Positions 1 through 56,447 of a stretch of 64,000 nt of DNA are shown piece by piece. The notes beneath the pieces are model-generated. The model was not told the origin of the DNA, searched no databases, and worked only from the letters and a program-made list of their open reading frames with translations. Where the stretch lies: assembly GCA_045837725.1 (NCBI GenBank), contig JBEWZL010000272.1, positions 1-64,000 of the forward strand. The letters run 5' to 3'. Position 1 is the first letter of the stretch. Every line of letters starts with the position of its first letter. The DNA comes from Vermamoeba vermiformis (taxonomy: Eukaryota). A program made the position numbers and the translations under genes.

Positions 1-838
1 GTACAAGCCATGGAAAACTAAAATAATTAATTAGTACACCGTCAAATACAATTAAATTTACTTGCGTAGGTGAACATATAAAAGGATCGGAGCAAAAGTT
101 CCGCGAGTACTTTGGGGATCTGGGTTGAATGTGCTATTTTGCCAGATCCCATTATCGTAGAAGAACTTCATTGTGCTCTTCACGTTCATGTCTCTGGATT
201 CAGCTGTTAACACGTTAGTTAAATCGTGCTTTAACCGTAGCAGGTACTTACGATCTTTTTCTCGGCGCAACCGGCACCATTCTTGCACATCAACGACAGT
301 TTCACCAAGTCGGCGGCGCTTTGGTTGGCGCTCGTTGTCTGCCTGATCACTGCCACGCTTTCGGCGTGGGCGCTTTGGAGCATCTGTCAATTTATTACTT
401 ACTAACATCAGCATTAATAAACTAACCAATACATACCACTACCCATTACTAGCTCCTCCTCATACAAGTTATCTTCAGTCGCAATACCTTCGTTGACACT
501 TAATTCTCTGGATTCAACTGCCAAAACTTAGCACAGAGTTTTAATTCGGTTTGGGCAACTTACCTTCATGTGACGATGATTTGTCAGTGCTAAAACGATC
601 TCGGTAAGTAATGGTGCTAATATTAATGTGTTTACTTACCTTTTAATCTGATCAGATTCACCGCTATCTTCATTTGAGGCGACACTTGATCTGTATTCAA
701 CGAATAAATAAAAAAAAGCAATAAAGAGCATTACTTACAATTCAATTCTCTCTCCATCGCTCGTAAAACTGGATGAACACTTAGCAACGACAAAAATAAT
801 ATCTAAATTAACCGAAATAAAAATAAAATGCATACCAT
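1..838 (-). CDS. Hypothetical protein (element A gene Z), multi-exon, 3' end outside window
   Basis: ATG|GTATGC at 838. Several short Ser/Asp/Glu-rich exons with GTAAG donors. Main exon is within ORF 58..429 (PKRPRRKR NLS-like, then EWCRLRREKDRKYLLRLKHDL). Splices again into 1-18. Confidence 0.6.
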
Positions 839-1163
839 AATTCCGAGTCTATTGTGCGATTGTTATCTGTAATTAATAGTAATTATTAATGTTATTGCCA
901 AAGCTGCGCTAGATTTGATTTTTTGTAATGCAATAAAAATGTCACAAACAGCACAAAAAAGATTATTAAAACACTTACTTCTTTTATTATGAGCCATTAC
1001 AATAACTAACGGTCCGTGGTCACTTATTTGAAGTGATTGTTGCAATAAGTCAGGTTTTTTTCTGATCAAAAAAGTTCGCGCGTCGAGAACATCACGCTAT
1101 TGAAGGCCCACCACCACATTCCCACCTGCGAACTAATTCGCAGGCCCTTCAATGACGTTCAGG

Positions 1164-4100
1164 CTACTTGCCAAAGTATTGGCGATACTTCGATACCCAA
1201 ATCCCTTCATCCACGGGCAAGATCGGAGCGCGCCTTCCGGCTTGAGAGAATAACTGTGTGTCCAGCATATCTTCGATCTTCATGCCGTGGTACTTTATAG
1301 TAGCCTCGGGATTGGACTTGGTCAGGTGAAAGATGCAAACCGTGCGTAGTTCTGTCTTGTTCTTGCACTTCTGTACCAGCGGCGTTTGCTTGATTACGTA
1401 GTCGATAATCTGACAACTCATTAGTAACGAAATGAGGTGAAATTGAACACCCACCTTAATTTTTGCTTCTAAGTCCAACATTGAGTCGCTTCTTACTAGT
1501 ATAGGCTGGCCTTCATCTCCGACAGTCATAATAGACGTAGGAGCAGCAAGCGTTGAAATGCGGACAAACTTGAAGATTCTAATGTCCGTGTCATTTTTGG
1601 GTGGTTTTCCCCAAAATGAATCGTTCGAGATGAGCGGGAACAACTTCAAACCAAGCTTCGCCAATAACTGCTCGATCTTCTTCTTCAAACCTCCGACAGT
1701 GACAACAGCAGCAGCGGTGTTCTTGTTTGTCAAGTACTGAACGGTTTGAACTGCTTTTGTTTTTCCCACCTTAATGTTGTCGTTAAGCTGGGCTATTACT
1801 TTCTTTTGCGCGAGTCGCCAGTGGTTGAAGTACTCGAGAGTAATCGGATAACGTTTGAAGCTGCGAGTGGCATCAGAAGGAAAGGCACTTTCACACACAC
1901 TCTCAAACGCGACAGTATCTCTAATTTTTACCTGTTGCAATAATTCGATTAATATTCATGCAAGTCGTGTGATAATACTTACAGTGCAGCCGGGGTGGCG
2001 AGTGTCGAACAAAGAGCGAAGCGCCTCACGTCCTCGACGCAAAGCATCGATAAATTGTTGCTTCTGTGTGGGACTACGGAAGCCGCCAGCGGTACATAGT
2101 GCAGCTAATAGCCCATTTACGAGGTTGGCTGCAATAGTACCGCAAATCGACTTGTCTCGGGGAGTAACAAAGCCATCTTGAGGACGAAGACAAAGTCTAA
2201 TTCTTGCACTAATGTCCATCATTTGTTCCTTATCTTTGACGTGTTGTGGGAACAGGCTGTGGAGAAATTTCGGAGGCAATGCAAGAATCAGGTCGTCTCC
2301 AGCCTGCAAGTCAGCAAGATCGGCCTCTTCAGCTTCACGGGCAGCGTCGTCAAGTGGTAACAGGCATTTAACTTGGTCGAAGTTGGAAGTAAATTCCACC
2401 AAGTCAGGCATGAAGTGTAGGCGACCATAAGTGAAGACGCTTTCTTTCAGTTTGTACCGGTTGAATAACTTCGGATGCGCTAATTGCAAGACCGCACTGC
2501 TCCAGATAAATGTCAAGCAATCTTGAAGCAAAAAGGCGGCACGTAGCAAGTCGTCATTGTAATCCAGAGCGTCCAAATGGCGTGCTGATAATTTGTTAGT
2601 GTAAGACCTTAAATTGTGTTGTTGTACGCACCTTGGACGACATGATCCAAAAGGAGGTAGAAATACGTTCCAATGCTGTCGGTGAACTTCCGTGGGAATA
2701 AACACATCGTCTCGGTGAGCACAGTCTGAAGTGGGCTGCAGCGCATCATTTCTAACGGTATTAAGCCGCATTGATACAGAGCTTTCAACATATTGAATAG
2801 CTCAGTCAGCGTTTCCCCAAGCCTAGCCATTTCATGATACGCGTCAAGCAGTTGTTGCATAGTCGGATTTTGTAGAGTGATTTCAAGACGCGGTCCGTAT
2901 GCCTTCTGAGGCATGATGGTTGAATAGTATTTTTCCGCTCGCTTCAACTCCTTTCGAGAATTAACGTCATTGATCTCTTCTTTAAGTCTAAGCACATTCA
3001 TTAGGATACAATTAACAATAAATTATAATAATCAAACTTACCGAGAATGAAGTTTATCGGAGACTCTAACATCCGCTCCGATAAGTTGTTTGACTTTCTC
3101 AACTGGGAATGCTAGGACCGCATGATAAGAGTTCGAGAACGGAATTTGGTGTCGGAAATCCTCACTTCCTTTGTGATAAGCTTTGACACGCGCCAACAAC
3201 AAATGTTGTTTTGAGTACTCGATCATAGTACTGGTGCACGTGCCAATTCCAAAGTTGGGATATTCCGTGATTCTGCAGCAAGAGTAAGTTGAAATTCGCT
3301 TAAGATTAACTACGCTTACTTAGGTTTTAAGTAGTCTTCGTCAAACTTGTTGCAACGAGCATGCTCAAAGATTGTTGTGTTGCGAGTCATTAGACCTTTT
3401 AATGGCGAGTTGTGCATGTCAGCAAGAAGCGAGGTGAAGTTTCTGGTAAAGAACATTGTAACGTTGCTATCGTCCCCGCATCTGTACACAAAAGAATTAG
3501 GACAAATGTCACGTGTCATAATGTCAATTCCTGACACGTGTCAAGAATTCTCAGATCACTTACTCTAAATCCAACCCAATATCTTGCATGAACATCACTC
3601 TATTCCCTGGAGTGTGGTAGTAGACTTTGTCCATATCAAATAGATCGTTCAGCTTGTCGCTTAATTTGCTGATGTCATCGGCAGATGTTACTGGATCTTT
3701 GCGGCCAAAGTGCTGGATGACAAATACTGGCTTGAATCTGTAAGCACGATTAGTATTTAATTAAATAATGGTGAAAAACCTTACTTGGGTTCTTTTTCGA
3801 CAAGTTTTTTAATTCGGCGCTGAATGTGACGAGTAGTTTCGGGTAAAATTCTTGTCGTTTCCCCTGGCCTTCTTTCTTCAGAGACTGCTACGAAGGGTAA
3901 TGCGACTGGTGTGGTTCTGCCTTGTTCGGGAGCGTCTACAACACCTAATGGGAACAGTTAACAAGTTGAATTCAACGCTAAGTTTCCGTACCTTGATATG
4001 CGCATTTCTCAAAAAACATTGTGATTGCTTCAACTGACCTTTCCCAAGGACAGTCCGGAAACACCGCAAATACGGGAATATTCCCGTCAACAAATCTTGG

Positions 4101-5404
4101 CAATTAACATTAGTAAGTATCAGAATATGACTTCGAAAACTTACCCTATACCAATGCTGGGACAAGTGTGCAATGATTTGCCTTTGTAACGCATCTTGCA
4201 AGACTTTAAAAGGACATTGTGGTTTGGGCGAATTGACATTTCCCAAGAGCCACGAATAACCTTAAGGGTCTCACTGACGAAGCCGGTGAAGTCGATATCC
4301 AAGCGAAAGCTTATTCTTGTATCTTTGGCTTCGGTGAAGTAGTAGTTGGGTCCATAGTAAGTGGTCGAAGTCAGCCAGTCAATGCTTTTGAAGTCATCAT
4401 CAAAATCTTCTTCTTCTTGAATAATTCTAGCACCTTCGATTAGGTGCTGCGTGAACAAATTCGTTTTCAAAGCCCCAACAGCCTGCGCATGACGAATCTC
4501 GTCAAGCAAATTGACGTCGTAGACTGTGCGACCGTCATCGTCTTTTAAGTGATGTTCCCTAAGAAGTACTTCATTAATGACATGTACGACACGATAACAT
4601 TTACTTACTGGTCTAATTTTACCAGAAGCTGCATCTTTTCTTTTGTTGTCAGCGCATGGTAGTCTTTCCAGTTTGCGAGAATCGCTGCTGCACCATCTCG
4701 TCGTAGCAACCGAAGCAACGAATAGTACTCGTCTGAAAGGGTTGCCGGGTCAACAGAAACTTCTTCTGAAGATGTCTCGAGTGGTGGCACGGGATCGGCG
4801 CAAGCTGTTATAACATAAGTACCGTATTTAGCATTTTTTAACGAAAACCTTACCATCAGAATTGTACGAAATAGGTGAAGAAGGAGGGGAACAATCCGAA
4901 GACGAATAAGACCGCGGAGAAGATAATGGAGAAGGGGAACGAGACCTTGGAGATCGTGGAGATGGTGGGGATCGCGGAGAAGATAGTGGAGATCGCGGAG
5001 AAGACGGCGGAGACGGAGATCGTGGACGAGGACATGAACGTGAGGACAAAGGCGAGGGAGGCGTTCTAAGAGCCTTCCTTGAACCTAACTAATAGTTAAA
5101 TCCAATGCTTCAGAAAAATAAAACAATAGTGCTTACGCTGGGACTTCGGCGTTACAAGCCAATCATTTACGTCCACTGAAGAGCCCAAAGACTCCTCATA
5201 GTTGGCGAGGTCTTCGTCAGTGGCTAGTTGCGTGGCTTCTTGGGTGAATTCTGAAAACGAGTCACCGGGGAAGTTATTCTCCTTTGAGTCAAGATTGAAA
5301 GCAGAATGCAAAAGCTTATCAAATCTTTTTGTTGGAGAAAGAGCTTCTGTTTTTTTTATAAGTCAGTGTCCAGCGAAGCATTTATATATAAATGAACTTA
5401 CCAT
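1164..5404 (-). CDS. Large spliced protein with Rep_trans-like rolling-circle initiator motifs (element A gene Y)
   Basis: ATG|GTAAGT at 5404. ORFs 4141..4509, 3316..3537, 3038..3226, 2609..3001, 1956..2771 and 1164..1940 join at canonical GT-AG introns (most junctions frame-checked). Motifs: RLDID, QDIGLDL (3569-3583), RVKAYHKGSEDFR (Tyr ~3176-3178), YGPRLEITL (RLE 2882-2890). Full-length paralog at 12286-16326. Gene existence is well supported; family call is moderate. Confidence 0.7.
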
Positions 5405-5471
5405 CGATCGAGGAGTTGAGAAATTCGTTGTTGGTAATATCGCGAAGGCTAATGGAAGTCTACAAAATTGG

Positions 5472-7937
5472 TTAATGCAACCAATCAGGAAATTCATCAC
5501 TGTGTGCCTTAATATATCTAAATATGCGATTTGTAGATTCTAAATCAGGAAACACTCTCGTCAAGAACGAGAACGGTAAATCAGTAAATATTAATTTCCT
5601 TTCGGTGCAGCAGATTTCGTAAAACTTTAGGATACGAAATTTCCATTTGCGAAAGAATTCTCGTCGGGCTGGAGAAGCGCTGGAAGGGCCTGTGTCTTTC
5701 CCGTCAAAGTCGTCGCTCATAGCAGCCGCCAACTTGGTCACATTGATTTTGCCCAGGATTTTAAACAACTTGTCGTTGACTTCGATCTCCACCGTCCTTA
5801 GGGCCATATTCGGTTTCTCCTCCATAATTTCGGTACGAAAACCTCCACAGAGGGTGCTAACAATCCCACCAAGGTAGAATAGTTTCAACTTGATGATTAC
5901 GTGAAGCCCCAGCTGAGTTTGAAAAAGTACTGACATTCCGTCTAAGCCATCGGTTAAATGCTGCACCAACGTGTCTCTTGCAACCAAACTAAGACTGAGG
6001 TGTGACGAATTGAAAAATTTGACAGCCACAGAGTCAGCTCCTTCTTTGACACCAGCCACATCAAGTTCCATCGAAGAGACGACCAAATCGTATGAAGACT
6101 GTGCAAATTCGCAATTACGGAGGCCAGAAAGTAGTTGACTGGAGGCACCTGCAGCGACAGGTAAGAAAGCTTCATAAAAAAGTTGCAAAAACCTTACCGG
6201 ATTCGTGTGTTATCAGGTCAGTTCCCGTTAGCTTTGGTTTGATCTTTACATCAGCCTTGACCTTATCTCGAAGAAGAAATTGCTTGTTTTCGTAAGTGAG
6301 TGCAACGATCATTGGGCGCTCGTTTGCATTTTCCACATCGATGCCAATCCCGTGAACGTGAAGTCTCTCCAGATGTTCTCGCAATGCAATGATATATCGA
6401 TGAGTCCGCCTTGCAACAGAGTCAGGAGAGAGGTCTTTGTTGTCCAAAAACCGTTCTCTCCTTTCTAATTTTAGGAGTTGCTCTAAATAGAAATACGTTA
6501 AAACCGGTATTACTATTTTTGGATTTGTTTTCGAAACTTACCTTCTCTTTTAGTTCTCTTGCTCTCGCGAGAGCTGTTTGACTTTGAACGATTGGATTTT
6601 TTCTTTTTCTTCTTTTTTTTGTTCTTCGTATCTTTGGCATTGTTATCGCTCAAATCTGGCTCTGATTCTGGCTCATCTTCCTCGGAAAGGACGGTACGGA
6701 CATTTCTTGGAACATTCGCTTGTGTATCACTTAATAGCTCTGAAAATGGTCAGTGATAAATAAAGGAAGACTGCATAATAGCTTACCAGGGGAGGTTTCG
6801 TGATCGGCTGATTTTTCTTCTTCACTTCGATTTGTATTGTTTTGGTCTTCAAATGAGATGAATCAATAAATAAACATTAAGCCAAGGTAAATACTTACTC
6901 TCACTGAGGACCGACTCTGGATCCGGCTCACTTTTTTCTCTTTCATTATCGTCAATTTCCTCTTTGTCCTCGTCCTCTTCGTCGTCCTCTTCGTCCTCCT
7001 CTTCGTCTTCTTCTTCTTCTTCCTCCTCCTCCTCTTCATCTTTGTTTTGGTCGTAGTCTTCGTCGGTGGGAGGAGGGACATCTTCGGAGTTATCAATAAA
7101 GGCAAGGTCGTCGGCATTTGGCTCTTCATGCTGGTTCAAATCATTCCAATCTTCTATCATGCCACGTACCGATGTAAGAGATATTTTCTTGGTTCCTTCT
7201 GGGACGTCATCTTCGACGTCACTTTCGGCTTTCTCACGAGAAAGTTGCGAGGTCTTCTCCTTGGTTTTTGTCTTTGTTTTCGTGACTATCGCCTCTGTGG
7301 CCTCACCGTCTTCATCAGAGAGATCAATATCACTAAAATCTGCATCGATGTCAGAAAACAAGAGTAAAATTTTGCTTAGGCAAATTCTAAGTACCTTTAG
7401 GTTCGTGAGTAGCGGCTCGCCGAGGCATAACTCTTGTTTTTGCACTCTAATATAGATGGGTTAGTCATATTTTGGCGCGAATTGGTCTGTCATTAGCTTA
7501 CCTCAGTACTGTTTGAGGGTTTGTTCCGTGAGCCTTTGGCCAACTTTTTCGGCGGTGAATTATTCGATTCCAAAGCCTTCTGAGGTGACGATTTGTTGGA
7601 TATTGACTTCTTGGGCGAGGACTTCTTGGGCGAGGACTTCTTGGGCGAGGACTTCTTGGGCGAGGACTTCTTGGGAGGGGGCTTCTTGGGCGAGGGCTTC
7701 TTCGAGGATTTCTTTGGCAACTTCTTGGATGATAGCTCGCTTGAAGCAGATTTTTTTGACACTTTGGGGGATTGTTGCTTCGACCCAGAAGCAACAGTGC
7801 TGGAGCGTGAAGGAGACGTTCGAGAGCGAGTTGCGACACCGGGAAAGAACATGCCCTTAACAGCAGCCATACAATCCAAGCCCGACTAAGTGATTGAATT
7901 TAGTGCGATATGATTGCCAAAGCAAAAAACTTACCAT
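5472..7937 (-). CDS. Conserved element protein X (copy A): SPKK repeats, acidic tract, conserved C-terminal helical domain
   Basis: ATG|GTAAGT at 7937. Exons in ORFs 7493..7879, 6849..7445, 6172..6447 and 5472..6188. C-terminus KLKLFYLGGIV...FFRKWKFRILKFYEICCTERKLIFTDLPFSFLTRVF aligns with ORF 16383..18437. Confidence 0.7.
7605..7705. repeat. 15-bp coding tandem repeat (GACTTCTTGGGCGAG)n encoding SSPKK
   Basis: 4 perfect and 2-3 degenerate units visible. Translates KKSSPKKSSPKK on the minus strand. Confidence 0.9.
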
Positions 7938-8078
7938 TGTTGCAAGTACGAGAAGTTGATGAGTTACGTTTCGATTCTGAATAAGTAACAATTAACTTAA
8001 AATCGCGCTGGCTTTAAAAAGAGCGGGCTTACACACTATTGGTCAAATAAACATTTTTTTTCTATATCTTTTAAACAA

Positions 8079-10660
8079 TCACACACTAAACTTGATAAAT
8101 TCCTCTCGCAGCAAATCAATGGCCTTCTCGTCTTCTATGTATATGACTTTGGCTCTTCTTGGTAGGACCCTGCGTTGAACTGGCGTCAATTGCTTTGAGG
8201 GCGGGATGATAGCAGGATAGAAAAAGGGTCCAAAGCTGTCAAGCGGGAGGTCTCTGCGGGGTCGTTCATGAACTTGCGCTAACAATTCGTTGTTCCATTC
8301 ATAAGAAAATAGGCTTGGAGGATAAACGTTTTGCGGAGTAATAGCTCGTGGATGGAAGCGAAACCTGCGTAAGAAAATAAGTATCTTTGCGCAAAAACTT
8401 TGAGAGTTAACTTACGGGCGATGAGCTAAGATATGCTTCATGATACTGATGGTATTATCGATGCCGTATCCTCCTAGATATAGGCGTGGCCCCGTCGTGT
8501 TGAGAGAGACATTGCGCGGATCCACCTCCTCGAAGAAATCAAGAGGAGATATAAATATATTGACCAGGCAGAGGTGACGTAATGCAAGCTGGTTTAAACC
8601 ATGCAAGTCTACGTATACACCTGGACAGTGCGATTCAAGCTCTAGCAGGTGAAATTCGGCAGGAAAGTTTACACCACGCAAAGATATTTCCCAGGCCCTT
8701 GTTGATTTGTCTTCTCTGGGAATTGGCAGACGCAACCCAACCAATCGCGGAGAAGCTGCAAAAATCTTGTTGATCACGGCAACAGTTGTGGCTCCCATCG
8801 TGTTGTACAGATCAAGTTCTTGCCCAAGAGCAAGATGGAAGTGAAGAAAGCGCAGGTGCCTCCACTCGTGACTGGCAAATCCATACGACACTAATTGAGT
8901 TCTAATGTCGACGATAGCCAGGGCTTGAAGAGAAGCGACACAAGCCGGAAACATCTTTGCGGCAACAGGAGGATCAACATCCTCAAAGCGGAGTTCGAGC
9001 AATTGACCGAAACTGGGAAGTGTTAGTTTAACGTACCAGTAAAAATTAATTATTTACTTACAAGGCACTCGCAGAATTGTTCATTGACTTGCCTGTCGGA
9101 TCCAAGCTCACTCGGGTCAGGTAGCAACCACGACACGCTGTCGAATCAATAGGGTGGATCGCACCAAAGTCGGAAAGGCGAATGATACAATCTTCAACTT
9201 CTAAAACCGAATACACGTGGTTGTTAACGGTTCGGTAGACGTGCCTTGGATCGTTGACAATGTTGATGGCATTAACCGGCTTGGGCTTAGTTTTCGGTGG
9301 GATGGCACCTTCATTAAGCAGAATGTTAGAAAGATGTAAAATAAATTAAGGACTTCATACTTAATTGGATTGGCTTGCCAACAGGTTCCTTGTCAGGAAC
9401 TGTTAGAACTTCAAGTGTTTCGGGTTCACTGTCTTGGATCGGTGAAGCAACGTAAGTCGGTGATTCCTGTACCACTAGATTAATCATGGTAAAAATAATT
9501 TTAAATTACTTACCGGCATTTCTTGTGCCGGGCTGGAAATTGAGGATGGGCTGATAGGGCTACTAGGGCTGGAATGTGACGCCTGAGAATGATGGGGGCT
9601 GGCATGGACTTCGAAGAGATCAATCGAATTTGAAACTTCTTCGCCCGCCGAGACAAAACTTTGCTTCTCTTGGGGTACTTCGACGCGAGCTTTCTTCGTG
9701 ATGGTTTGTGCCAATTCCTCTCCCTTTCTCTTAGGGTGGTACGTAGGACATGAATACAGGAGGTCGCAATTCGAGTGCTGGAAGATGAAACGCCTCGTAG
9801 CCAAATCCGTTGATATTCGGCAGGAAGTCTACCTCGGTGAATTTATTGGCATCAGGAATTTCGGTCGTAGCGCCATCAGTGCCTAATAACATATTAGAAC
9901 GCCGTATTAAAATCGCTATTGTACTAGCCGTTACTTACCTTTACTTTCGAATTTGGTTTCCTTTGCTGTGTATTGCGAGAACAAAGGGACATCATAGCGA
10001 CAATTTTCGGTTGAAATGACCGCCAAAAGGGATTCCAAGGACTTGGTGGAAGTCCAGTGACCGTAGTGGTAACGCATCGCACACCAGAGTTTTGCGTGCT
10101 CGGTGTGGGTCACGTCTCCGCCTTCCGCGCGACTGGCGCCCTTAGTCATGTTGGGAATGATTACGTTGTCTCGGGCTGACCGCAATATCTCGGGAAACGT
10201 GCGCATGAACTTGACGAATCTCTGCCAGGCGACGGATGCGAGGCTAATGCCGAGGTGTTGAGCTATGGCAGCGCGGTACGACTTATACCAGCGAGGGTAC
10301 ACCATTGTGCGCTCTGGACGGGGGGCTAGCATTCCGTGGAAGTCAAAAACAACGTAGTAGAAGAGGAAATCCGCTCGGCTGCTGAACATGAAGTATTCCA
10401 AGCTATCGTGGAGTTTCTGCACGTAAGCATTGAAATCTCCTCCAGGCACTGACCGGTTTCTAGCTAGTACAAGGAACTCTACAAAGGTCACGATGTTCTG
10501 TTTCACATCCGGTGACTTTTTGTTATTCTGTAAATAAATAAAGTATTAGTATATAGTTATAACGATTTAATATATAAATACGCGAAATAATATTCGGGCT
10601 TATTACATTCGTGTGCACAGTAATAGTAATAAATAAAATTTTTAAAACAGATTTTACCAT
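8079..10660 (-). pseudogene. Element A gene A1, multi-exon hypothetical protein with one apparent frameshift (~9735); Leu-rich C-terminal half
   Basis: ATG|GTAAAA at 10660. Exons in ORFs 9931..10506, 9484..9804, 8412..9002 and 8079..8285. Frame breaks at GTACCACCCTAAG; removing one C gives VPPKRKGEE. Confidence 0.5.
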
Positions 10661-10877
10661 TTCAGATTTAATTGCAACAAGAAGGATATAATAAATATAT
10701 ACTACGGTAATTCGTAGTATCGATAATATTACAAGCGGATTTAAGCTCTTTTGGAGACTCAAATCCGGATTTGCAAGTACGAGCAGCTTTTGGCCGCAAG
10801 GAAATTACTAACGAAGTCTTGTGGACTCGCAAGCAATTAAAAAAATAGGTGCGGATCACTTTTGTAGTCAACTGATA

Positions 10878-11080
10878 GTAACGTGCCACGGCATCAAAGC
10901 CGCTCCAGCGCGAGTTATTTCGGATTCAGCCGATGCGTGAAGTTCGCATGCGTCAGCATGCATTTAAGCTCAACAGCGCGACCACAAGGGTCTTATTTGC
11001 ATTGATTATACAGCCGACAGTAACGTGCCACGGTCGCCAGCGCCGTTCAGCGCGAGTTATTTGGATTGAAGCTGATGCGA
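10878..11080. repeat. Two ~60-bp direct repeats upstream of the element A genes
   Basis: GTAACGTGCCACGG...CAGCGCGAGTTATTT...GATGCG at ~10878 and ~11020. Confidence 0.75.
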
Positions 11081-11351
11081 CTTTAGATGACGCATCAGTT
11101 CTACTCAAAGGGTCAATTTATATACCAGCATAATGGATCAAACATGAATTTTGGTAAGTGCACTAGATAATTGTTTGATCCAGGATTTGGATTTGAACGA
11201 ATAAATTAATTTAAATAAATTAAACATTAATACAGATGACTAACGATTTTATTAGGTTTTGCATGGAAATAGATCACGATCCCGACTGTTCGCGCGCGCA
11301 ATTCTGTAATTCGGTAATAAATAAATAAATTTTAGTAACTTGCACAGTATT

Positions 11352-11733
11352 TTTTAGGAGATCGTCTCCGCGCTGGAGACGACCTTTACGGACTTGGTTT
11401 TTTTAGGAGATCGTCTCCACGCTGGAGACGACCTTTACGGACTTGGTTTTTTTAGGAGATCGTCTCCACGCTGGAGACGACCTTTACGGACTTGGTTTTT
11501 TTTTGCAGATCGTCTCCGCGCTGGAGACGACCTTTACGAACTTCGTTTTTTTTTGGAGATCGTCTCCACGCTGGAGACGACCTTTACGAACTTAGTTTTT
11601 TTCGCAGATCGTCTCCGCGCTGGAGACGACCCTTACAGACTTAGTTTTTTTTTGCAGATCGTCTCCGCGCTGGAGACGACCCTTACAGACTTAGTATTTT
11701 TCCCAGATCGTCTCTGCGCTGGAGACGACCCCT
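11352..11733. repeat. Palindrome array 1: 8 units, 49-50 bp period, TCGTCTCC-N5-GGAGACGA plus GGACTTRG(T)n linker
   Basis: Stems start at 11362, 11411, 11460, 11510, 11560, 11609, 11659 and 11708. Confidence 0.95.
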
Positions 11734-11792
11734 GGGTACATTGGGTTTTATTGCAGGTTGTCTTGGATGTGAGTGTGGGTTTGGGTACGGGA

Positions 11793-11820
11793 TTACCTAA
11801 GCAAAATTTTGCTTAAGTAA
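11793..11820. other. 28-bp near-perfect palindrome at the A/B junction
   Basis: TTACCTAAGCAAAATTTTGCTTAAGTAA, one mismatch. Confidence 0.8.
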
Positions 11821-16326: not shown

Positions 16327-16382
16327 TATTAAAAAAAATAATAAGCAAACAGAGATATTAAAAATTTTGCATTACTTGCACA

Positions 16383-18437: not shown

Positions 18438-18637
18438 TTTTGGCGGGTTTATTTTTGGGTGTCAAATTATTAGGTTTTGAGTGTCAAAAGTCCCTTTGTG
18501 GACTAAAAACAGACATAATTAAATGAGAATAGGCCAAATCAGAGTCAATATAGCTGAAAAACTACTATTTATGTAAAACAAAACAAAAACAACAAAAGTG
18601 CCAAAAAAAATGATTGAAGCAGCGTCTCCCTTGGGCT

Positions 18638-21600
18638 TTAGTTCTCTTTTGCCTTCTTTGCTGCAGGCTCTTCATCAGCTTTTGGTGGTGGACGCACTGG
18701 CTTTGTCTTGGGTTTAAGAAGGCGCGTGAGAGGAGCAATACTAGGAGGTGCCAGTTTTGGAGGGGAAAAGATGAAATTTTCTGCTCGTGCTGCCGACTTG
18801 CAGGCTTTGACCAATTCTTCATTAGTAAGACCATGTGCAGCCAATAGTGAGAGTAATTTCCTTGCAAAAATGGTTAATACTTGAAAACATTGCAGCTAAA
18901 ACTTACTCGACAATTTTAATCCAAAAATCAAGATGGACAGTCTGCTTTGAAGAGCAGCACACCTCCACACCCTCAAAGCCCCACTCTGCAGAGCATTCCA
19001 AGCAGCGAGATTCCTGATCTTTTCTGAACAAGAGATGGATAAGAGGAACATAGCACTTGCTGCAATGAACGTATGCAAGGGAAGAAGCAGCAAACTTTGT
19101 TTCAGGAGCAGTGGAAAGATATGCCAACCACTCTGCTAAACAGTGGCCAAACCCGACAGTCTCAGCATTTGCAGGAAGTGCATGGTCCTGCACTTGCAAC
19201 CAAAATAACCACGATCCAAGATCCACAACTGGAGATGCTGTGAATCGCTTGAAAAATGATGTCCAAGGGTAATAACTATACCCAAGGACAGTGGCATTTT
19301 GGTTGATTCCCTCCTGTAAACATTACTCCAGTTAGTAGAGACAAAACAATGTTAACTAATTGCTTACATCAGTGTCAGGGTAGTAAGCAAGCCAAAATGG
19401 GTTAGCAGTAGCAGGGATGTGAAGCACTTCACCAGGCTTAGCAGTAACTATGTTGAAGTTGTTTGCTGGATCATCCTTGGCTTCCTGGGCTGAATTTTTT
19501 GGTAATTAAGAAACAGGCTCCACATAAAATATGTTTAAAACTTACACCAAGGGTTTAATGACTTAGATTCAGCAAAAATGAGCCGCCCATTTGCTGTTCC
19601 TGCATGAAACAAAACAAGTGGAGCTTTGTGTGGCACCATCAAAACTGCTGAAAAGGCATGGAAGTTGAGCCACGTGAATTCATTGACACAACCAGCCAAT
19701 GCACTTGTGTTGGAAGCCATTTGCTGTGGAAGAACACCATGACTCAATGGAGAACCAAAAAAGATTGCTTGGCAGCGCTTGATTAGCATCTCAGGCAGCA
19801 CTTCACCCTCTAATTAGCAAAGGGTGTTAATAATAGTAAAAATAAAGATAATAATTAGTAAACTAAGTACTTACGAGAGACACAGCCAATCCTGGGTTCT
19901 TCACCTGCTGGCACTTCCTTTGTGAACAAAATGCTTTCATTACCCGTGTTCACAAAGGTAACTGCACTTGAAGGCTTGTAACTCTCGTATAATAAACGAG
20001 GAAAGACCTCTGGCTTCACAACACTGGTGTGCTGCAGATTTAAAGCCTGAAAAAAAATAATTAATTGGTTTTTTTCAAATTCATTAACTTAATTATGATT
20101 ACCTCTTCCCACGTTACAACAGCTTTCTCCCCAACTGCATTGACCAGTGTGGTGCACAGGCAATGCACATCAGCCAAAGCCTCCTGTTGGGGTCGAGAAT
20201 ATGCTTTGAAATCTTTTTCTCCTCCCTCAGCAGCAACTTGCTCACCATAGTACATGATGATCTGGGAACCTTCCCCGTAGAAGGTCATGTCATCGAGTTC
20301 AAGGAGACCAATAATCATGTCATTTGCTGTAGAATGAGGTGAGATTAGAAGCAGAGGAAGAAAAGTTTGTTCAAAACTTACGTGAGGCAATGAACCTTTG
20401 AAGGCAGTAAAACACTGCTGCCAAGCGTTTGGTTTTGAGTGGGGGATACTCCTGTACAAGCTAGAATTAGTACGCTGTAAATCTAATGATAAAATCTACT
20501 GCAGAAGATTTTTATAAATTTTATTAAAAGGAAATTTCAATCGCATTTGATTGTTATTTAGCCTCTATTGCTGGCAATATAAATATAAAGAGCTGTATTA
20601 TAAGGCAAACAAATAAAAGAAACAAAAAAAAACTGTTTTGGATCTGGTTTTGGATCTGCACAAACAGGTTTCTATCCTTACCTCAATAATCAGCGAGACT
20701 TTCTCATGCAAGCCTTTGAAACTTGGCTCAGTAAATTCAAAATTGCCAGCCAAGTAGTACGCTGTCGATTCACTAGTGCTGACGAGAATGCTTTTGAATG
20801 GTAAAAGCAATTGGGTGCCCAGTCTTGCTTCAACTTTGAAAAGAAATTAGCCAATATGTATATAGGGTCATTAATAACTTACTAAGAAGCAAGTATTGCC
20901 CCAAAGAGGCAATAAAATCACTTCGCCATGCCTTGTCCACCAAGGATAGAAGCAGCACATCAAGCTTTGCGTCTTTCAACGCTGCTATTGGCAGGGTTTT
21001 TCCTTTGACAGTGAAAATTTTAAGGGCAGGCTTGGCATCCTCTTCAAACAAGTCCACAGAAGCTGATTCGTCATCTTCATCTTGCTTCTGCGCATCTGCT
21101 TTTTTCTGGATTGGGGTGCCTGCTGTGTTGAAACGGCCTGGTTGACCATCATCAGGCTCTTGGCTGTTGTCTTCTGTGTTGGAACTGCCAACATTTTTTT
21201 TAGGTGTTCTTCTGGCACGACCAGGAGTTCCACCATCGTACTTTCTTTTTTTCACTCTCTTTTTTGGAGTTGAGCTGGTCTCTCCAGCTTCAGCTTCCTC
21301 CTCATCATCAACATCTATCGGGGTCCCTGGAGGGGTGTTATTGTTGGCAGGAGGTAGAGTTTGGACTTGTTTTTGCGGAGTCTGTGCATCCACTTGCAGC
21401 TGCTGATTTGTTACTTGTTGATCAGCAACAACCTGCTGTTGCTCCTGGACTGATGGCTGTTGCTCCTGGCGAGTCGCCTGATTTTCCACCGGCTGTTGGA
21501 CTTGTGCAGCAGAAGCTAACTGCTGCTGAGGCTGCACTGCTCCTCCTTGCTGTTGCCCAGCAACTGCTTGTTGCTGAGGCGGAGCAGCAACTTGTTGTTC

Positions 21601-23097
21601 CTGCTGAGCAGCCACAGGAACTGCAGGATTTTCTGCAGCCAGTTGCTGCAGCTCAAGTTCAGAAAAAGTGAAGTTGTCCATCTTCTTTTCCCATGCAGAC
21701 CAACTTAACTGTTGGTCAACTCGAATTTGGCACAGTTTCCTTTTAAATGCAGCAAGGTCTTTGCCTTGTGCCTCCTATGTGCGAATCATTCAGTTTTTTT
21801 TTTAATAATTTAAAATTGAAAAGGAACTCACCAGCGCATTGTAATGCTTGCGAAGCTTGTCAAAGGCCTTCACCGCATGATCAACAAACAATTCAGCCAT
21901 AATGCTAACATTTTGGGCTGAATTAACATCAGCACCTAAAAAAAAGATTTAGAATGGTGAAATACCTCACACTATTTGCTTACGTTTGTGGTGAACCTCC
22001 TGCCACTGTGCTTGCTGTCGCTCCATGAAAATCTTCTGATCTTTCCTTGGCAATTTTGCCAAGCACTGCAGGTCAGTTTTCAGAAAAGGGCTAAAAGAAT
22101 ATGTTATTCTTAGTTTTAGAGGTTTAATATTGGTTATTACTTACACTTGGAAGAACTTTTTCCTTGCCTCATGGTTGGCATGGTAAGTTGAAAGCTCTTT
22201 GAGGACATTATAATCCAACGACCTCAGCTGCCATTCAACATCTTTTAACAAATGGTTAAAAAAGATCTAATTAAAACAAAAATCAACTTACCATGAAGTT
22301 TGCGACCAGCAATAGCATCCCAATAGTTTTTGGTTCGATTGCCTGCGAACCAATTATCTTGGGTATCCCCATAAGCTTCATGAGCCAAATGCTGCACCTG
22401 GAGGATCTTTTCCAGGTAGGACATCTTACGCACAGTCTGTTCTTTAGACTGGATGCTGTGTCCTTCAGCTCGCATCTCCACCTCGGAGTCAAAAGCATAA
22501 AGAAGGATTTGATGCTCCAAATTCTTCTTGTGCAGATCACACAAGTAAATCAGAGCTTCAAATCGATGCTGACCTACAATAAACTGTTAATAACCTAAAT
22601 AAAGCAAAAAAAACAACTACTTTTACTTACCTGCGAAGATGGCAACCTTTTTTATCTTGCCATTTGTCACAATGACACCATGGAGGGATCCTTGGTTCGA
22701 ATCCCAACCATGCTTCTCTATTTTGTTGATCACTCGATTGAGACCAACACGGTTTAGAGTGCGGATGTTGAACCTAACACGAAAGGAAATTAGAGTCAAT
22801 AATATATTTAAACTGACAATACTTACGCTCTACCAACAATAACTGACTCCTTCTTATTTAGTGGGTGGCAGCTTTGCGTGATGGTGAAGCGTCTGAGGTG
22901 GTTTTTGCACACTGCTGCGCCATCATCAATTATTGACGTGGGGATGCTACAAGGGATTAGTTAGGCTTGAAAACAATAGATTGGAGTTACTTACGAGTAC
23001 TGTGCCTTCTCTTTGCAGTCTGGGACGCAGCAATTTGCCTTGTTGAAGACCTTGGGATTTGCCTTGAGTTCGGCACACGTGACCATTTTCCACTCAT
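18638..23097 (-). CDS. Multidomain protein: C3H zinc finger, ParB/Srx-like domain, Gln-rich linker, degenerate JmjC/cupin, C4 zinc finger
   Basis: Manual splicing of ~16 exons stays in frame from MSGKMVTC (23097) to the stop at 18638. Reads CCVPDC..CKNH; FNIRTLNRVGLNRVINKIEKHGWD..VAIFAG|QHRFEAL; RKMSYLEKI; LAKLPRKDQ; AKPGEVLHIPA..FW; CSKCYVPLIHLLF..CLEC. Confidence 0.7.
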
Positions 23098-23669
23098 TAG
23101 AGAGTTGGTGTGACTATTTAAAAAGCTATTAATTTATATGTAAAAATATATAGGGAATATTGTTTAATTAAAATACATTGAATTAGGAGGAGCTGTGAAA
23201 AGAAAAAAGTCAAATCTGACACAAAAAAATTAAATTGCAATTTTACCCTCCAAAATAACCTTGTAAAGGTTAAAATATTATTATTAAAATTATTACATAG
23301 TTAAATTAATTATTTGAGCAATACTTACCAGAACATTCTGTTTCCAATACTGATCTGAGATCTCCACGTAAGATCTCTGTTGACTTTGCACAGCAGCTGC
23401 AAGGTCTGCTGACATAACACGTATATTTGTGTTACTCATGATAACAGCAAAATATTGAAATGAAATAGAACCGTTGGAAAAAAGATTTTGTTTGGTTGTG
23501 AAATCTCCCTAGAGAGAAAAAATTATTCTGGGGAGATTTTGTCAACCTTCTGCAACAGTTATACCCCCCTTATATTGACTCAGTTGTGTGGGTTTTCACT
23601 CTCAAACCTTTTCACTAATTTTGCACATTGCAGTCAGCAGGGCCATTGTGCAACCTGCATCCAGAATAC

Positions 23670-24790
23670 CTTTGGATGCGAGTTCAGATCGGGGACTCAT
23701 GTTGCTCATCTCGTGCCTGTTGACCTGTTCTATTGAATGATACTGCAGATAGCTCAATATGAAGCACACATCACAATTTAAGCCACATGAAATCTCACAA
23801 CACTAAAAATAATAAAATTCTACTGGGGAAGATTTTTATTAAGTTTATTAACCCGAAATTTCTCCTTTCTACTGGCCCAGCTACTTATGCTTTAATATAG
23901 AGAGCTCCACATCAATTCATATTATTTCTGCCATCAGGTATAGTAAGCAAAGCAAATAAAAAATTGACTTTGGATCGGATTCAGATCTGTGCTCACCTTG
24001 CTAGTTTGGTGCCTGTTGACCTTCTCTTTGCCCATATATTGCAGACAGCTTGATATGAGGTATTGGCAACCCATTTGAGCAGCATTAAATCTCAAAGTAA
24101 GCGCAAGAAAAATCTACTGCAGAAGAATTTTATAAATTTTATTCGAATGAAATTTCTCGTTGCTGTTGGCTTTGTTTATTACCTAGTGACTCTAATTTGT
24201 TGGTGCTCGTGAGTTTAACTATACTGATGCTTTCTATTAGGCAGATTTAGTCATTGGTTGTGAAAAAATATCGGATCGGTTTTCGAAGAACACTGGAATG
24301 TGTCAACTTTCATAGCTATACTTCCCTTAATACCCAGTGCTTACCAGCAATGGCCTAACTTGTGAGTGTTCCTATTCCTGCACAATTCCACCCTGTGAGA
24401 TTCACAGCAGGCTCTCTGGGATTGGTCCAAAAACTTTTTGTTTCACAACTTTGGTTCACAACAAAAAAAAAATAATTACACACGGGCTTCCTTGTGCATT
24501 CATTTGGTTGCCTTTCAACTAACAACTGCAGGGACCGGGTGGAGAGTTGCAGAGCTTCTACTTAATAGGATGCCTAAGTCTCGGACCTTCTTTCTAAAAC
24601 TTAACTTCCCCGCCAAGATCTTGCTGCATGGTGGTCTTTGCACTAGTAGATCGACAGTGTGGTGCCTTGCGTTGCCTCTAGCACTGCTACTGCATGCTAG
24701 GGTCCTGGAGCCCTAGACTAACACTTCCTGTGATGTGATTGGTCCAAAAAGTTTTTGTTCACTCTTTGAACCACAACAAAAAAATTTCGC
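23670..24790. repeat. Degenerate ~300-bp-period repeats in the upstream non-coding region of element B
   Basis: TGGAT..TTCAGATC..GTGCCTGTTGACC..TGCAGAYAGCT at ~23672 and ~23971. AAAAT(T)CTACTG..GAAGA at ~23815 and ~24110. GATTGGTCCAAAAA..CACAACAAAAAA at ~24420 and ~24737. Confidence 0.65.
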
Positions 24791-25244
24791 AAAAGATTTT
24801 GTTTTTGTTTATCTATTCTTGCAGCCACAACACCACCACTCTCATGCACAGACAAGCACAGTGTGTTTCCCATGGTCGATTGCTTGGTGCACTCCTGTGT
24901 GGTAATACACTCTGCGTGTCTGTGCACTCCTGCGTGAGACTGTTTGCCCATCTGAGCCACGGTTGCCAGGTAAGTCACTTTTTAATTTCTTGAGCAGTGG
25001 CTATACCTGAAATAGTATGCCACTGTTTTCCCATTAATTACATGATTGGTTTCAATTTTTTACGACACCAAGGCTAATTTTTGGATGTCAAAATTTTTTA
25101 TTCCAGATTAGCTCAAATTTATTTCTTTTACTTGATTTTTTCACTTGTGCCACTAGGCACTTGCCCAATTAATTGTTTTATGGGCCAAATTCATTATACA
25201 GCCTTTTTTTCTGAACTGGCACCTCGATGTGCTAATCCTGGATG

Positions 25245-26040
25245 AGCTGTTCCAAGTGGAACCAGCCCTTTCAGACTTAGCCTGCCCCAGTACTATGTTT
25301 CTGCGGGGAACTAGCCTCAATTGGGCTTTGTTTCCTCACCCCTGGTTCCTTGTGGAACCGACCCTAGTTTGGACTTTGTTTCTTTCCAAGGGTCGGTTCC
25401 TCATGGAACCGGGGTTTGCAGGACTTAGTTTTTTTTCACCCCCGGTTCCTTGAGGAACCGACCCCTGTAGGACTTAGTTTTTTTCAGGGGTCGGTTCCTC
25501 GCCGAACCGGCCCTTTTTGGACTTTGTTTTTTTTTGACCCCGGTTCCTTGAGGAACCGCCCCCTCTTGGACTTTATTTTTTTTCAAGGGTCGGATCCTCA
25601 TGGAACCGGGGTTTGCAGGACTTAGTTTTTTTTAACCCCCGGTTCCTTGAGGAACCGACCCCTGTAGGACTTAGTTTTTTTTAACCCCCGGTTCCTTGAG
25701 GAACCGACCCCTCTTGGACTTTATTTTTTTTCAAGGGTCGGTTCCTTGCCGTACCGGCCCCTCTTTGGACTTTATTTTTTCCCAAAGGGCAGTTCCTCAC
25801 AGTACCGGGGTTGCTGGACTTAGTTTTTCTTGCCCCCCGGTTCCTTGAGGAACCGCCCCTTGTTTGAACTTCAATTTTTTTAACAGGTTGGTTCCATGCG
25901 ATACCTCCCCCTGTTAGACTTTGTTTTTACATAGGACCAGCACCACACAAACCAGTCTTCCATGTGTCTGTACCCCTGGCTCCTTGTAGAACCACCCCTT
26001 GTTCAACTTTAGCTTTTCAAAGGGGATGTTCCACATTGCA
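25245..26040. repeat. Palindrome array 2: ~12 clear units plus degenerate flanks, ~49-50 bp period, CGGTTCCTTGAGGAACCG plus GGACTTWG(T)n linker
   Basis: Cores near 25343, 25394, 25443, 25492, 25541, 25591, 25640, 25689, 25739, 25790, 25838 and 25889. Confidence 0.92.
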
Positions 26041-26461
26041 CCAGGCAATGTTTAACTTAACATTACTTAACTTACTTTAGTCTACAGCCTATCTTTGGAC
26101 CGCAGAGCTTTGCTTTCACTGCCTTGCCAAATAAAAACACCAGTTGTAACTGTTTTATGTAAAAATAAAAAAAACTTCAAACAAACTCTTGCTGTTCTTT
26201 TCTATTTATTGTTTTTCATACATTTATTCTAAGTAAATTAAAGTTAAACTTGTCTCTTAGTGTTTTTATTTTGGCATGCTTTTCGATGCAAAAGTGACGG
26301 CAAAAAGACAAAAAAAGTCAAAAATTTAACAAAAAAGGGGTTTAACTGGACTTTAAACTCTATAACCCTTAAATTTCTATAACCCAGAAGCCTACTATAA
26401 TACTTAGTCTTACGACTTGAATTATATGAGTACTAGAGGATAGGTCCGTTCATGGCGGCAT

Positions 26462-26532
26462 TTCCATGCATGGAGCTACGATGGGAGCATGGCCCATTTG
26501 GTCACCCATGTCATGCGCCTCCATGCATGGAA
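26462..26532. other. GC-rich hairpin: 14-bp inverted repeat TTCCATGCATGGAG / CTCCATGCATGGAA
   Basis: Arms at 26462-26475 and 26519-26532. CATG-rich loop within AT-rich surroundings. Confidence 0.75.
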
Positions 26533-27323
26533 TTATTTTTTTCAGGGGGAGCCCAGTTGGCCTGGTATCCTGATTTGCAACGGATCGGGATCGGGATTTT
26601 TCTTCCTGATTGGTGCCCAATCGGGATGTTTTCAAATTTTGAGCAAAGCCATTAACTTTTTTCTGTGTTTTTCATGAAATTTACAGGCTTTTTATTTTTA
26701 CATCGTTTTTGCTGGAAAATACAAGGTTTTAAATATTGCCCTTTTTCGACAAAAACACCTATTCCTATATCCCTAACTCCTAGGAAACAGTAATATGTCA
26801 GTATTAAATTTTCCATTAATACGACCAATCAAATATTCATAAATCATTAAATATAAATCACCAAAGATTGATCCATAGCATTATTTTAATTCGTAATCAA
26901 TTTTAAATTCGAATGTATAAATCCAAATCTTTGCTTAATTATGGTTTTTATTTAAATTACAATATACTGACATATTATTTATCATTACAGAAACATGTAA
27001 CAATTGATTTGCACGATCAAATTGCCTTGGTTATTGGTAAAAGAACGAGAACTGCAATCACGTAAGAGTTATTAATCTGTTCGTTTTATTATATATGGCA
27101 CTAATTTAGTTAGCATACAATTCTTTGAGATCTGTCGCGTATTCCAGCTCGTAAGTCGTAACAAATTACTATCAGCACTAATTAATAGAATTCATAGCAC
27201 TCAAAAATGATAATGATCACGTTCATGCATTAAGTCGGCTCACTCGAACAACCGCAACGGTCAGTAGAGGTAATTTTTAATGGTTCGAATTTTGTTTAAC
27301 GGGCAATATTAGTTGCTATGGGT

Positions 27324-27610
27324 CGCATTGTCCAGTCATTGGACGGACCCTCTGTGCCGTGCCTTCAACGTCCTCTTCTTCTCAAAACCTGCGTGACTTG
27401 ACTTGCACTGTCCAAGACTTGGACGCTTAGTGTTGCGTGGCTCGCACCTCCCGGTTATTGGTATCCTCTACACCGTGCCATCAGTGTGCCACTGTCCAGT
27501 TATTGGACGGTCCCTCAGCGCGTGGCTCGCACCATCCAGTTATTGGACGGTCCTCTCAGTGCGTGGCTCGTACCGTCCAGTTATTGGACGGTCCTCTCAG
27601 TGCGTGGCTC
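27324..27610. repeat. Palindrome array 3: ~40-41 bp unit, ACCGTCCA-GTTAT-TGGACGGT plus CTCAGTGCGTGGCTC
   Basis: 3 clean units at 27490-27610 and 3 degenerate units to the left. Confidence 0.9.
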
Positions 27611-27910
27611 TCCTATCATAAAGTTTAGTACACTTTATTTAATATTTTTGTTTCATACCATGCCATCTGGAAAATAGGCCAACCAAAATGGAGATGAGCC
27701 TGCTGGAATGTGCAACACTTCCTGATTTTTAACTCCAATCATGTGGAGGTGCTCTGCATGTGCAAGATTTTCATTTACATCTAAAGTTTAGAAAATCAGC
27801 ACACATAATGCTAATAATAGTAACACTTACCCCACTTGTTTGCATCCTTTGGTTGGGCAAATAAAAGCATGCCATTAGCACTGCCACCAAAATAGTATAG
27901 CAGCATTGAA
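27611..27910 (-). pseudogene. Truncated paralog of the JmjC-like part of the ParB-JmjC gene (third element remnant)
   Basis: Exons read YYFGGSANGMLLFAQPKDANKW | DVNEN..KNQEVLHIPAGSSPFWLAYFPDGM, versus LFHAGTANGRLIFAESKSLNPW | ..KPGEVLHIPATANPFWLAYYPDTD in copy B. Intron positions and phases are the same. Confidence 0.8.
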
Positions 27911-34089: not shown

Positions 34090-36400
<2,311 letters not shown>

Positions 36401-56374: not shown

Positions 56375-56447
56375 CGCTCCCACCTGGGTTCGAACCAGGG
56401 ACCTTTCGGTTAACAGCCGAACGCTCTGCCGACTGAGCTATGGAAGC
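56375..56447 (-). tRNA. tRNA-Asn (GTT)
   Basis: GCTTCCATAGCTCAGTCGGCAGAGCGTTCGGCTGTTAACCGAAAGGTCCCTGGTTCGAACCCAGGTGGGAGCG forms a cloverleaf; followed by a T-run. Confidence 0.97.

Follow-up and report, generated by a model that had tools for sequence, protein, structure and literature searches.

What kind of element occupies the first 28 kilobases (kb) of contig JBEWZL010000272.1 of Vermamoeba vermiformis (GenBank assembly GCA_045837725.1), where two multi-gene blocks lie in tandem on the same strand, each headed by its own array of short palindromes? We analysed positions 1 to 64,000 of this contig (64,000 nucleotides, hereafter the window), the first part of which an earlier note had read as a plasmid-like mobile element with its own replication and partition-like proteins. 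Our results point, tentatively, to integrated selfish cassettes whose arrays would serve as multimerised sites for a DNA-binding protein encoded by the cassette itself, a reading that we prefer while considering it possible rather than probable. The element would be a multi-gene cassette with introns, restricted to a lineage and present in a nuclear chromosome as a tandem integration of two complete copies and a decayed one. This putative system appears to be far from every known kind, because the tests of membership in known families failed or gave no clear answer and neither the libraries nor the literature returned a match; a description of it turned up in none of our full-text searches, which is no proof that none is in print.

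Two tandem blocks with a common gene order

The two co-oriented blocks lie on the minus strand, block A at about 1-11.9 kb and block B at about 11.9-26 kb, and a third, decayed unit follows at 27.3-28.0 kb. Along the minus strand both blocks have the same order: a palindrome array, variable gene content, a gene that we call X and a gene that we call Y. Repeat finding, tblastn and an all-against-all blastp of the stop-to-stop open reading frames (ORFs) of the window bear out this repeated arrangement, which had been described beforehand with a single variable gene per block; that is true of block A, whereas block B has two (V_B1 and V_B2). The X and Y genes of the two blocks are deeply diverged paralogues, with about 23-30% identity in ORF blastp and tblastn, and none of the ORFs at 30-64 kb was related to the blocks in the all-against-all blastp.

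Gene Y codes for about 1,100-1,200 amino acids (aa). Y_A (1164-5100, minus strand) is a multi-exon gene, with exons at 1164-1931, 1983-2584, 2632-2987, 3042-3272 and beyond, whose 5' end and start codon are uncertain. Y_B (12286-15900, minus strand) has two firm exons, 12286-13598 (437 aa) and 13651-14437 (262 aa), and uncertain upstream exons at 14.5-15.9 kb. The C-terminal ~640 residues of Y_A are homologous to Y_B: when the spliced Y_A model is searched against block B with tblastn, residues 577-1216 align to 14236-12319 with 23-27% identity (E value 1e-38), and the same search gives no alignment between the N-terminal halves. At the level of single ORFs, blastp matches 12289-13605 of Y_B to 1959-2801 of Y_A (27.6% identity, E 8e-12) and to 1167-1955 (E 2e-6), and 13625-14464 to 3041-3319 (E 2e-9) and to 2612-3022 (E 7e-9).

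Gene X has a composite structure. X_A (5472-7936, minus strand) starts either at the ATG at 7870 or at the ATG directly behind a block-A upstream motif (described below) at ~7936, and combines a Lys/Ser/Pro-rich N-terminal repeat, an acidic tract and a C-terminal part of about 250 residues homologous to X_B (blastp of X_B 16386-18461 against X_A 5475-6209: 25% identity, E 4e-7). The basic repeat is encoded by a 15-nucleotide (nt) repeat at 7605-7702 (6.5 copies, 93% matches), which yields KKSSP-type, SPKK-like units, and after it comes a long Asp/Glu tract at 6967-7031; X_B (16383-18437, minus strand, a single exon with an ORF of 684 aa) has instead an acidic and Ser-rich region. The true start of X_B is likely Met30, at 18350, since its relative P0001 (59% identity) begins there. 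P0001 is unnamed and is the sole relative of X_B retrieved by a word-based search of 5.8 billion proteins.

The two large ORFs of Y_B are not in the same frame, and a 52-nt intron (13599-13650, GTAAGT...CTGAC...AG) connects them. A relative of Y_B, P0002, begins exactly at this intron boundary, and Y_A, P0003, P0005 and P0006 break at the aligned place; because all of them have this boundary in common, the Y intron is older than the split of the Y clades described below. The extra introns of Y_A fall where Y_B is one uninterrupted ORF. The introns are real and one position is kept between paralogues and relatives; these are therefore nuclear eukaryotic genes, and the frame-shifted ORFs joined by an intron at a conserved position confirm what had been concluded before from the host-type spliceosomal introns. 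Most genes of the window, for which we built rough intron-aware models with a custom script, are likewise on the minus strand and interrupted by introns of 44-82 nt of the GTAAGT...CTRAY...AG type.

The third unit holds a fragment of a V_B1-like gene (27656-27960, minus strand) made of two short ORFs between which the intron place is retained. By blastp, 27656-27787 matches 19359-19505 (53% over 34 aa, E 1e-10) and 27814-27960 matches 19538-19813 (46% over 26 aa, E 2e-4), and array C, described below, adjoins them. The remnant that had been suspected behind block B is thus real, but its layout is not that of the blocks, as the gene fragment stands on the opposite side of its array compared with blocks A and B.

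Block-specific palindromes and leader motifs

Array A (11346-11740) consists of seven clean units and one degenerate unit of 49-50 base pairs (bp); Tandem Repeats Finder reports 11350-11730, period 49, 7.7 copies, 92% matches and a score of 560. Its unit is a palindrome, GATCGTCTCC-N5-GGAGACGA(C)C, followed by ACGGACTTGG-T(7). Array B (25331-26025) has about 11-13 units of 49-51 bp and is degenerate at both edges (Tandem Repeats Finder: 25336-25762/25895, period 49/99, 70% matches, scores 319-695). Here the core CGGTTCC-N4-GGAACCG is followed by GGACTT(A/T)(G/A)-T(7-8), and asymmetric CCCC/GGGG flanks alternate in orientation relative to the fixed GGACTT-T run. Array C (27310-27610) has about five units of 41 bp with the palindrome CCGTCCA-N5-TGGACGG and without the GGACTT-T-run motif; Tandem Repeats Finder reports 27490-27610 (period 41, 3.0 copies, 92%) and the repeat search extends the array to 27310.

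Arrays A and B therefore have the same 49-bp period and a common motif, GGACTTNGT(7) or GGACTTNG with seven or eight T, beside a palindrome that is specific to each block. The two-unit pattern GACTTNRTTTTT-N35-40-ACTTNRTTTTT matches 11 times in the window, always in arrays A or B, against 0.00 matches expected from 100 shuffles. Tandem Repeats Finder, this pattern count and the comparison of the palindromes agree with the block-specific arrays first seen by eye. Folded as DNA hairpins, single units have z values of -4.2 (A), -2.8 (B) and -1.2 (C). In two public sequencing runs, X6 (from a related organism) and X2, other palindrome cores occupy the array-B region, such as GGTTAC...GTAACC in place of the GGTTCC...GGAACC of the window. 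From the pairing of a block-specific palindrome with a conserved flanking motif we suspect both a binder specific to the cassette and a common factor.

Each block also seems to possess its own leader or promoter element, since the motifs upstream of its genes are block-specific as well. In block A, the 16-mer TTGCAAGTACGAGMAG has two exact sites in the window (0.16 expected), one upstream of X_A (7940-7955) and one about 110 nt upstream of the V_A ATG (10771-10786). The leader palindrome of block B, AAATCTACTGCAGAAGATTT, lies at 15966-15985, 16238-16257, 20492-20511, 23816-23835 and 24110-24129, plus a weak copy at 11818-11845; with up to three mismatches this 20-mer gives 8 strand matches at 5 sites, all of them intergenic in block B (0.02 expected). 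It sits within a conserved segment of ~48 nt that, upstream of Y_B and V_B1, ends in a donor-like junction between CAG and GTAGAT and continues into a short intron-like stretch.

Other repeats lie close to these elements. In the 1.9 kb between the start of V_B2 and array B, two tandem segments of ~296-317 bp (23696-24759), in which no ORF was modelled, carry one block-B leader motif each (at 23816 and 24110) and may serve as alternative first exons without coding content. A 69-nt direct repeat is present twice (10869-10937 and 11011-11079) between array A and the promoter of V_A; its copies are 72% identical, with the cores AGTAACGTGCCACGG and CAGCGCGAGTTATTT exact in both. Contigs of the runs X2, X3 and X6 keep about 50 nt of this repeat and then pass into unlike sequence on both sides. 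The repeat is possibly a cis element, either conserved or repeated.

How could such arrays work? A cassette, as we propose it, would comprise along the minus strand an array of 8-12 units of 49 bp, its own leader motif, one or two variable genes and the X-Y pair. X would bring a basic, SPKK-like and acidic N-terminus and a helical C-terminus, and Y possibly a winged-helix end. The arrays would be bound by a cassette-encoded, sequence-specific dimeric protein, the candidates being the C-terminal domain of Y, X and the AGQHR protein V_B2. By analogy with sopC/SopB, STB/Rep1-Rep2 and viral maintenance repeats, they might serve, in cis, to maintain the cassette, tether it or silence it, and the divergence of the palindromes between cassettes would reflect the co-evolving specificity of the binder.

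Repeated inverted repeats of the kind found in ParABS centromeres are present in arrays A, B and C, a likeness that is anatomical only. Excerpts of PMC3597684 describe sopC of plasmid F as a 43-bp repeat present 12 times in tandem, in every copy of which SopB binds a 16-bp inverted repeat; as far as these excerpts go, the features in common are a tandem array and about ten direct repeats of 40-50 bp with one inverted repeat each. Unlike sopC, the arrays studied here have 8-12 units of 49 bp with 7-10-bp arms, a further motif, GGACTTNG with a T run, is found in their units throughout the family, and their binding is predicted only. They also differ from sopC/SopB in lying at an intron-bearing eukaryotic nuclear locus that yielded no match to a ParA ATPase, a canonical ParB_N or a helix-turn-helix.

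Among eukaryotic nuclear plasmids, an excerpt of PMC11962162 presents only the 2-micron and Ddp families as clearly characterised, neither with bacterial-style palindromic-site arrays, and states that in the 2-micron plasmid the STB repeat is bound by Rep1/Rep2. Judged by this excerpt, the cassettes resemble the 2-micron and Dictyostelium Ddp plasmids in their poorly conserved, family-specific proteins, a repeated cis locus and a small core with variable genes; by contrast, the DNA studied here is chromosomal and in tandem, its genes have introns, and it has no Flp-like recombinase or long inverted repeats. The cassettes might belong, in integrated form, to an undescribed third family of nuclear episomes or selfish elements in eukaryotes, with its own centromere-like or tethering array, a cognate binder, and palindromes diverged under incompatibility-like pressure. 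We regard this more specific proposal as unlikely. It would make the tandem order with arrays at the junctions the footprint of integration by recombination in the common part of the arrays. If true, a third family would be notable, since the excerpt of PMC11962162 knows only two that are clearly characterised.

A rare protein family without a name

By its sequence, Y is a real, conserved and very rare family without a name. The word-based search of 5.8 billion proteins retrieved P0002 as the sole relative of Y_B (61% identity, unnamed). A profile of the Y C-terminal region, run against 1.84 billion representatives, matched 18 proteins at E<=1e-3, 11 of them at <=1e-10 and 4 at <=1e-30, all unnamed fragments of 74-439 aa. 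We built a tree from the 15 rows that cover the best-shared region, excluding 6 of the 21 alignment rows that had fewer than 100 residues there. Three clades of this tree are starred, and Y_A and Y_B do not fall in the same one: the first contains Y_B, P0002 and P0004; the second P0011, P0013, P0014 and P0017; and the third eight rows including Y_A, whose nearest relative is P0003 (64% identity). Ten relatives, namely nine Y-family fragments and P0001, had no Pfam match at the cut-off.

Searches in other collections were negative within their reach. Y peptide patterns hit 286 stretches of metagenome contigs, none of which was confirmed, and the array DNA pattern hit 120 loci in such contigs, all single chance matches or microsatellites. 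The ESM Atlas gave no usable match for the Y_B exon or X_B. Sequence searches of PDB with the Y and X profiles, the middle exon of Y, two exons of V_A and the V_B2 exon returned no match with an E value under 1; for the Y profile the best was 1.6.

The model of the C-terminal 436 aa of Y_B has a predicted local distance difference test (pLDDT) score of 65.7, and its last ~100 residues, compared with winged-helix domains of the MarR/Fur/IclR/TFE-alpha type, show a weak likeness to them; the C-terminal end of Y is thus possibly a winged helix. With Foldseek this model had no match at E<=0.001 in PDB and none in BFVD; neither an RNase-H-like nor another nuclease fold was recognised in it, and there was no Rep-like row in VIA-wide. 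The C-terminal model of X_B is poor (pLDDT 48.4) and all-helical. A DNA-binding domain of the EBNA1/E2-like beta-barrel kind in X was considered and dropped, given that this low-quality model is all-helical.

A possible winged-helix end would also suit a large DNA transposon of an undescribed superfamily, in which Y would be the transposase, acting through its C-terminal DNA-binding domain on the array; the array units would be subterminal sites, X an accessory chromatin protein and the variable genes cargo. The size, the introns, the combination of core and variable genes, the multi-clade orphan family, the decayed copy and the RNA silence described below would all agree with it. Against it, each unit has a single array, direct rather than inverted between units, there are no terminal inverted repeats (TIRs) and no similarity between block ends, no catalytic motif was recognised, and the modelled 436 C-terminal residues of Y show no nuclease fold. 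Several eukaryotic transposase superfamilies have no Pfam model. Our Pfam search of 30 translated ORFs of genes X, Y and V, out of whose reach such superfamilies fall, detected no transposase, Rep-helicase, PolB, capsid, polymerase, packaging ATPase or integrase; nor did it detect a tyrosine recombinase family, and the window contains no long inverted repeats. The Pfam result bears out the earlier remark that DDE transposase, tyrosine recombinase, Helitron, PolB and capsid genes are missing. We judge a new transposon superfamily to be rather improbable. The idea that array units are Helitron-type 3' hairpin ends was abandoned, as there is no Rep-helicase and the unit does not end in CTRR.

An endogenised virus or virophage-like element, with the upstream motifs as viral promoters and the arrays as a maintenance or packaging site, would account for the common motifs upstream of genes, the orphan proteins and the RNA silence. 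It finds no capsid, polymerase, packaging ATPase or integrase to stand on, the Y model has no match in BFVD at the threshold given above, and pattern scans of IMG/VR with Y and X_B confirmed no relative at the sensitivity of such scans; the conserved spliceosomal introns speak against it too. A viral origin is, to us, barely credible.

Searches for plasmid-type proteins

Does the locus encode a plasmid-type replication and partition apparatus? The earlier note had proposed an integrated plasmid-like element with a Rep_trans-type rolling-circle initiator, either X or Y, and ParB-type partition on parS-like arrays. PF02486 (Rep_trans) had no match at E<=0.1 in the 30 ORF translations. A profile of six Rep_trans sequences, drawn from 7 matches in 301 bacterial genomes, was run on 1067 window ORFs and spliced models and placed no X or Y model in its top 10 (best decoy 3.4 bits). 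Neither these searches nor the Y C-terminal fold model, for which Foldseek returned no Rep fold, support an initiator, so that the Rep_trans part of the proposal is largely refuted.

The ParB part fared less badly. Its candidate gene, V_B2 (20598-23439, minus strand), codes for an AGQHR core, a Gln-rich middle and a C-terminus without assignment, the core being interrupted by an intron at 22574-22630. Canonical ParB_N (PF02195) was not matched: Pfam returned no family at E<=10 for two V_B2 exon halves, NCBIfam likewise reported nothing, and a 13-sequence ParB_N profile matched nothing around AGQHR in the spliced model of V_B2. What stands is a weak alignment to relatives of that fold. The DGQHR domain (DndB) and GmrSD_N are relatives of the ParB/Srx fold, and the V_B2 core (a hydrophobic strand, AGQHR and a helix) is in register with the DGQHR/DGQQR core of the bacterial profiles. 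A 22-sequence DGQHR-core profile gives V_B2 13.7 bits and rank 1 among 3068 sequences (2000 shuffles, 1067 window ORFs or models and the query domain), with the best decoy at 10.0; among 2000 shuffles that leave GQHR in place, 11 score at least as high as the real sequence. The GmrSD_N core profile (30 sequences) gives 6.4 bits and rank 3, a score reached by 22 of 2000 motif-preserving shuffles, and a whole-length DndB profile (30 sequences) finds the correct register at -0.4 bits. This test is biased, as both the profiles and the V_B2 target were picked for the motif, and the signal, with p ~0.01, is weak and suggestive at best. V_B2 moreover differs from DndB and GmrSD_N in having Ala in place of an invariant Asp and in being unrelated to them over the rest of its length, and the scores of 13.7 and 6.4 bits are weak.

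An integrated plasmid of this bacterial type would explain the sopC-like anatomy of the arrays and the register of the AGQHR core with the DGQHR and GmrSD_N profiles. It is nevertheless very improbable: apart from the missing Rep_trans signal and canonical ParB_N, Pfam detected no ParA/SopA-type P-loop ATPase family in the 30 translations, the candidate ParB gene is found in block B only and hence outside the conserved core, and a collection of 72,556 plasmid records gave no tblastn match to the Y exon. Ancient conserved introns also speak against a recent origin from a bacterial plasmid.

The remaining variable genes are equally devoid of recognisable domains. V_A (8082-10660, minus strand) is a multi-exon gene that has no homologous gene in block B; searches of PDB, Pfam, NCBIfam and PHROGs detected no known domain in it. 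V_B1 (18565-20546, minus strand), a multi-exon gene with a model of ~500 aa, has a partial paralogue at 27656-27960 and no known domain in Pfam.

Selfish cassettes or a host gene cluster

Public reads offer some information on copy number and expression. The share of sampled words of the stretch 12001-22000 is 0.71 and 0.68 in two runs labelled 'organism A', 0.35-0.49 in the water-metagenome runs of one study (X3-X5), and 0.16, 0.17 and 0.05 in a fourth water-metagenome run and in 'organism B' runs. Four runs were aligned to 8001-28000, the DNA runs as assembled contigs (Logan) with k-mer depth. In the DNA run X2, single contigs over V_A have depths of 800-1150, against 355-540 for block B as a whole; V_A bins sum to 1300-1800 and array A sums to 4771, and all long contigs over 12189-24789 have depths of 361-583. 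The depth changes near 11.86-11.96 kb (355 at 11960), that is, near the border between the blocks. Contigs of X2, X3 and X6 pass into unlike sequence at 11861 and 11900, and likewise at 10868-10924. These data fit fast-evolving arrays and possibly differing copy numbers of the blocks, and are proof of neither; the only hint of mobility is one indirect depth step in one run. In the RNA run X12 ('organism A'), 23 of 12,966,262 read records fall on 8001-28000, 22 of them as partial matches only, at A-rich stretches, and the run index lists no RNA run as containing the queried stretch.

We read the cassettes as selfish and non-essential because their proteins are orphan and fast-evolving, the clades are deep, a neighbouring copy is decayed and one RNA run contains no transcripts of them. 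Several observations weigh against this interpretation. The cassettes have the GC (guanine plus cytosine) content of the neighbouring host genes, and a SelO gene lies 8 kb away. None of the 30 distinct X, Y and V translations reached the Pfam cut-off (best E 0.018), NCBIfam and PHROGs searches of 10 ORFs each returned nothing below E 0.05, and for none of the cassette proteins do these library searches demonstrate a domain of DNA binding, replication, recombination or partition. Apart from the arrays, the flanks of blocks A and B do not align with each other, and the repeat search of the window found no terminal inverted repeat at the block ends, the longest inverted pairs being of 33 nt or array units. 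The identity between A and B is low (23-27%) and an ancient intron position is kept, with no sign of recent movement. The X2 step comes from summed contig depths in one run without a single-copy baseline; it conflicts with a depth of 1092 in the bin 12003-12669, although the flanking contigs (11960 and 12189-13341) are at 355-383, and X3 shows no excess of V_A over block B. The blank result in X12 comes without a positive control, and the region may simply be absent from the strain that gave the RNA. Finally, the DNA-run contigs include no circular joint, which such contigs would be unable to show.

The chief rival is an explanation by ordinary, non-mobile host DNA, in which an old, tandem-duplicated, lineage-specific gene cluster would have arrays that are promoter-distal regulatory, insulator or terminator repeats set between units of the same orientation and genes that are condition-specific, for instance to a sexual or resting stage. 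The spliceosomal introns, host-like in type and length and with one position kept across paralogues and relatives, the very deep divergence between A and B, the host GC and host neighbours and the absence of any detected transposase, recombinase, TIR or viral gene would all be expected of such a cluster. Relatives at ~60% identity imply purifying selection, and the arrays are placed precisely at the junctions, with the 3' end of one unit on one side and the 5' end of the following unit on the other. Left unexplained would be the palindromes that each unit has of its own beside a conserved flank motif and a 49-bp period, the leader motif of each unit, the varying gene content around a fixed X-Y core together with a decayed unit, the depth step of X2 at the block border, and a family with three deep clades and yet just 18 protein clusters among 1.84 billion. 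A host cluster is a substantial possibility that we find, on balance, doubtful.

Selfish cassettes, if that is what they are, would be novel either as a type of selfish element or as a eukaryotic system of cis/trans specificity, and arrays A and B would be a natural pair of orthogonal protein-DNA recognition modules. Should the locus prove to be a host cluster, it would still define a conserved orphan family, Y, with relatives limited to 18 fragments among 1.84 billion representatives.

Genomic setting and minor observations

The locus lies in DNA of ordinary aspect. GC is ~0.38-0.45 across 1-60 kb, with no step at the cassette region. Beyond the cassettes, the window carries the SelO gene (33942-36400, plus strand; Pfam PF02696 at 35360-35851, E 3.5e-21), an ORF with ankyrin repeats recognised by Pfam (50840-51484, minus strand) and, from the tRNA scan, a tRNA-Asn(GTT) gene (56375-56447, minus strand). 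These three features, together with the host-type introns, identify the window as eukaryotic nuclear chromosomal DNA. Rfam and tRNA scans had no match within 1-28 kb.

The non-coding stretch between arrays B and C (26010-27343) has a summed depth of 1100-1400 in X2, against ~540 in the neighbouring array-B bin, and may be another repeat; X2 also has several indels relative to the window at 27002-27172. On the 3' side of Y_A, at 58-1000 on the minus strand, lies a small multi-exon gene whose modelled N-terminus is basic and rich in Arg and Lys.

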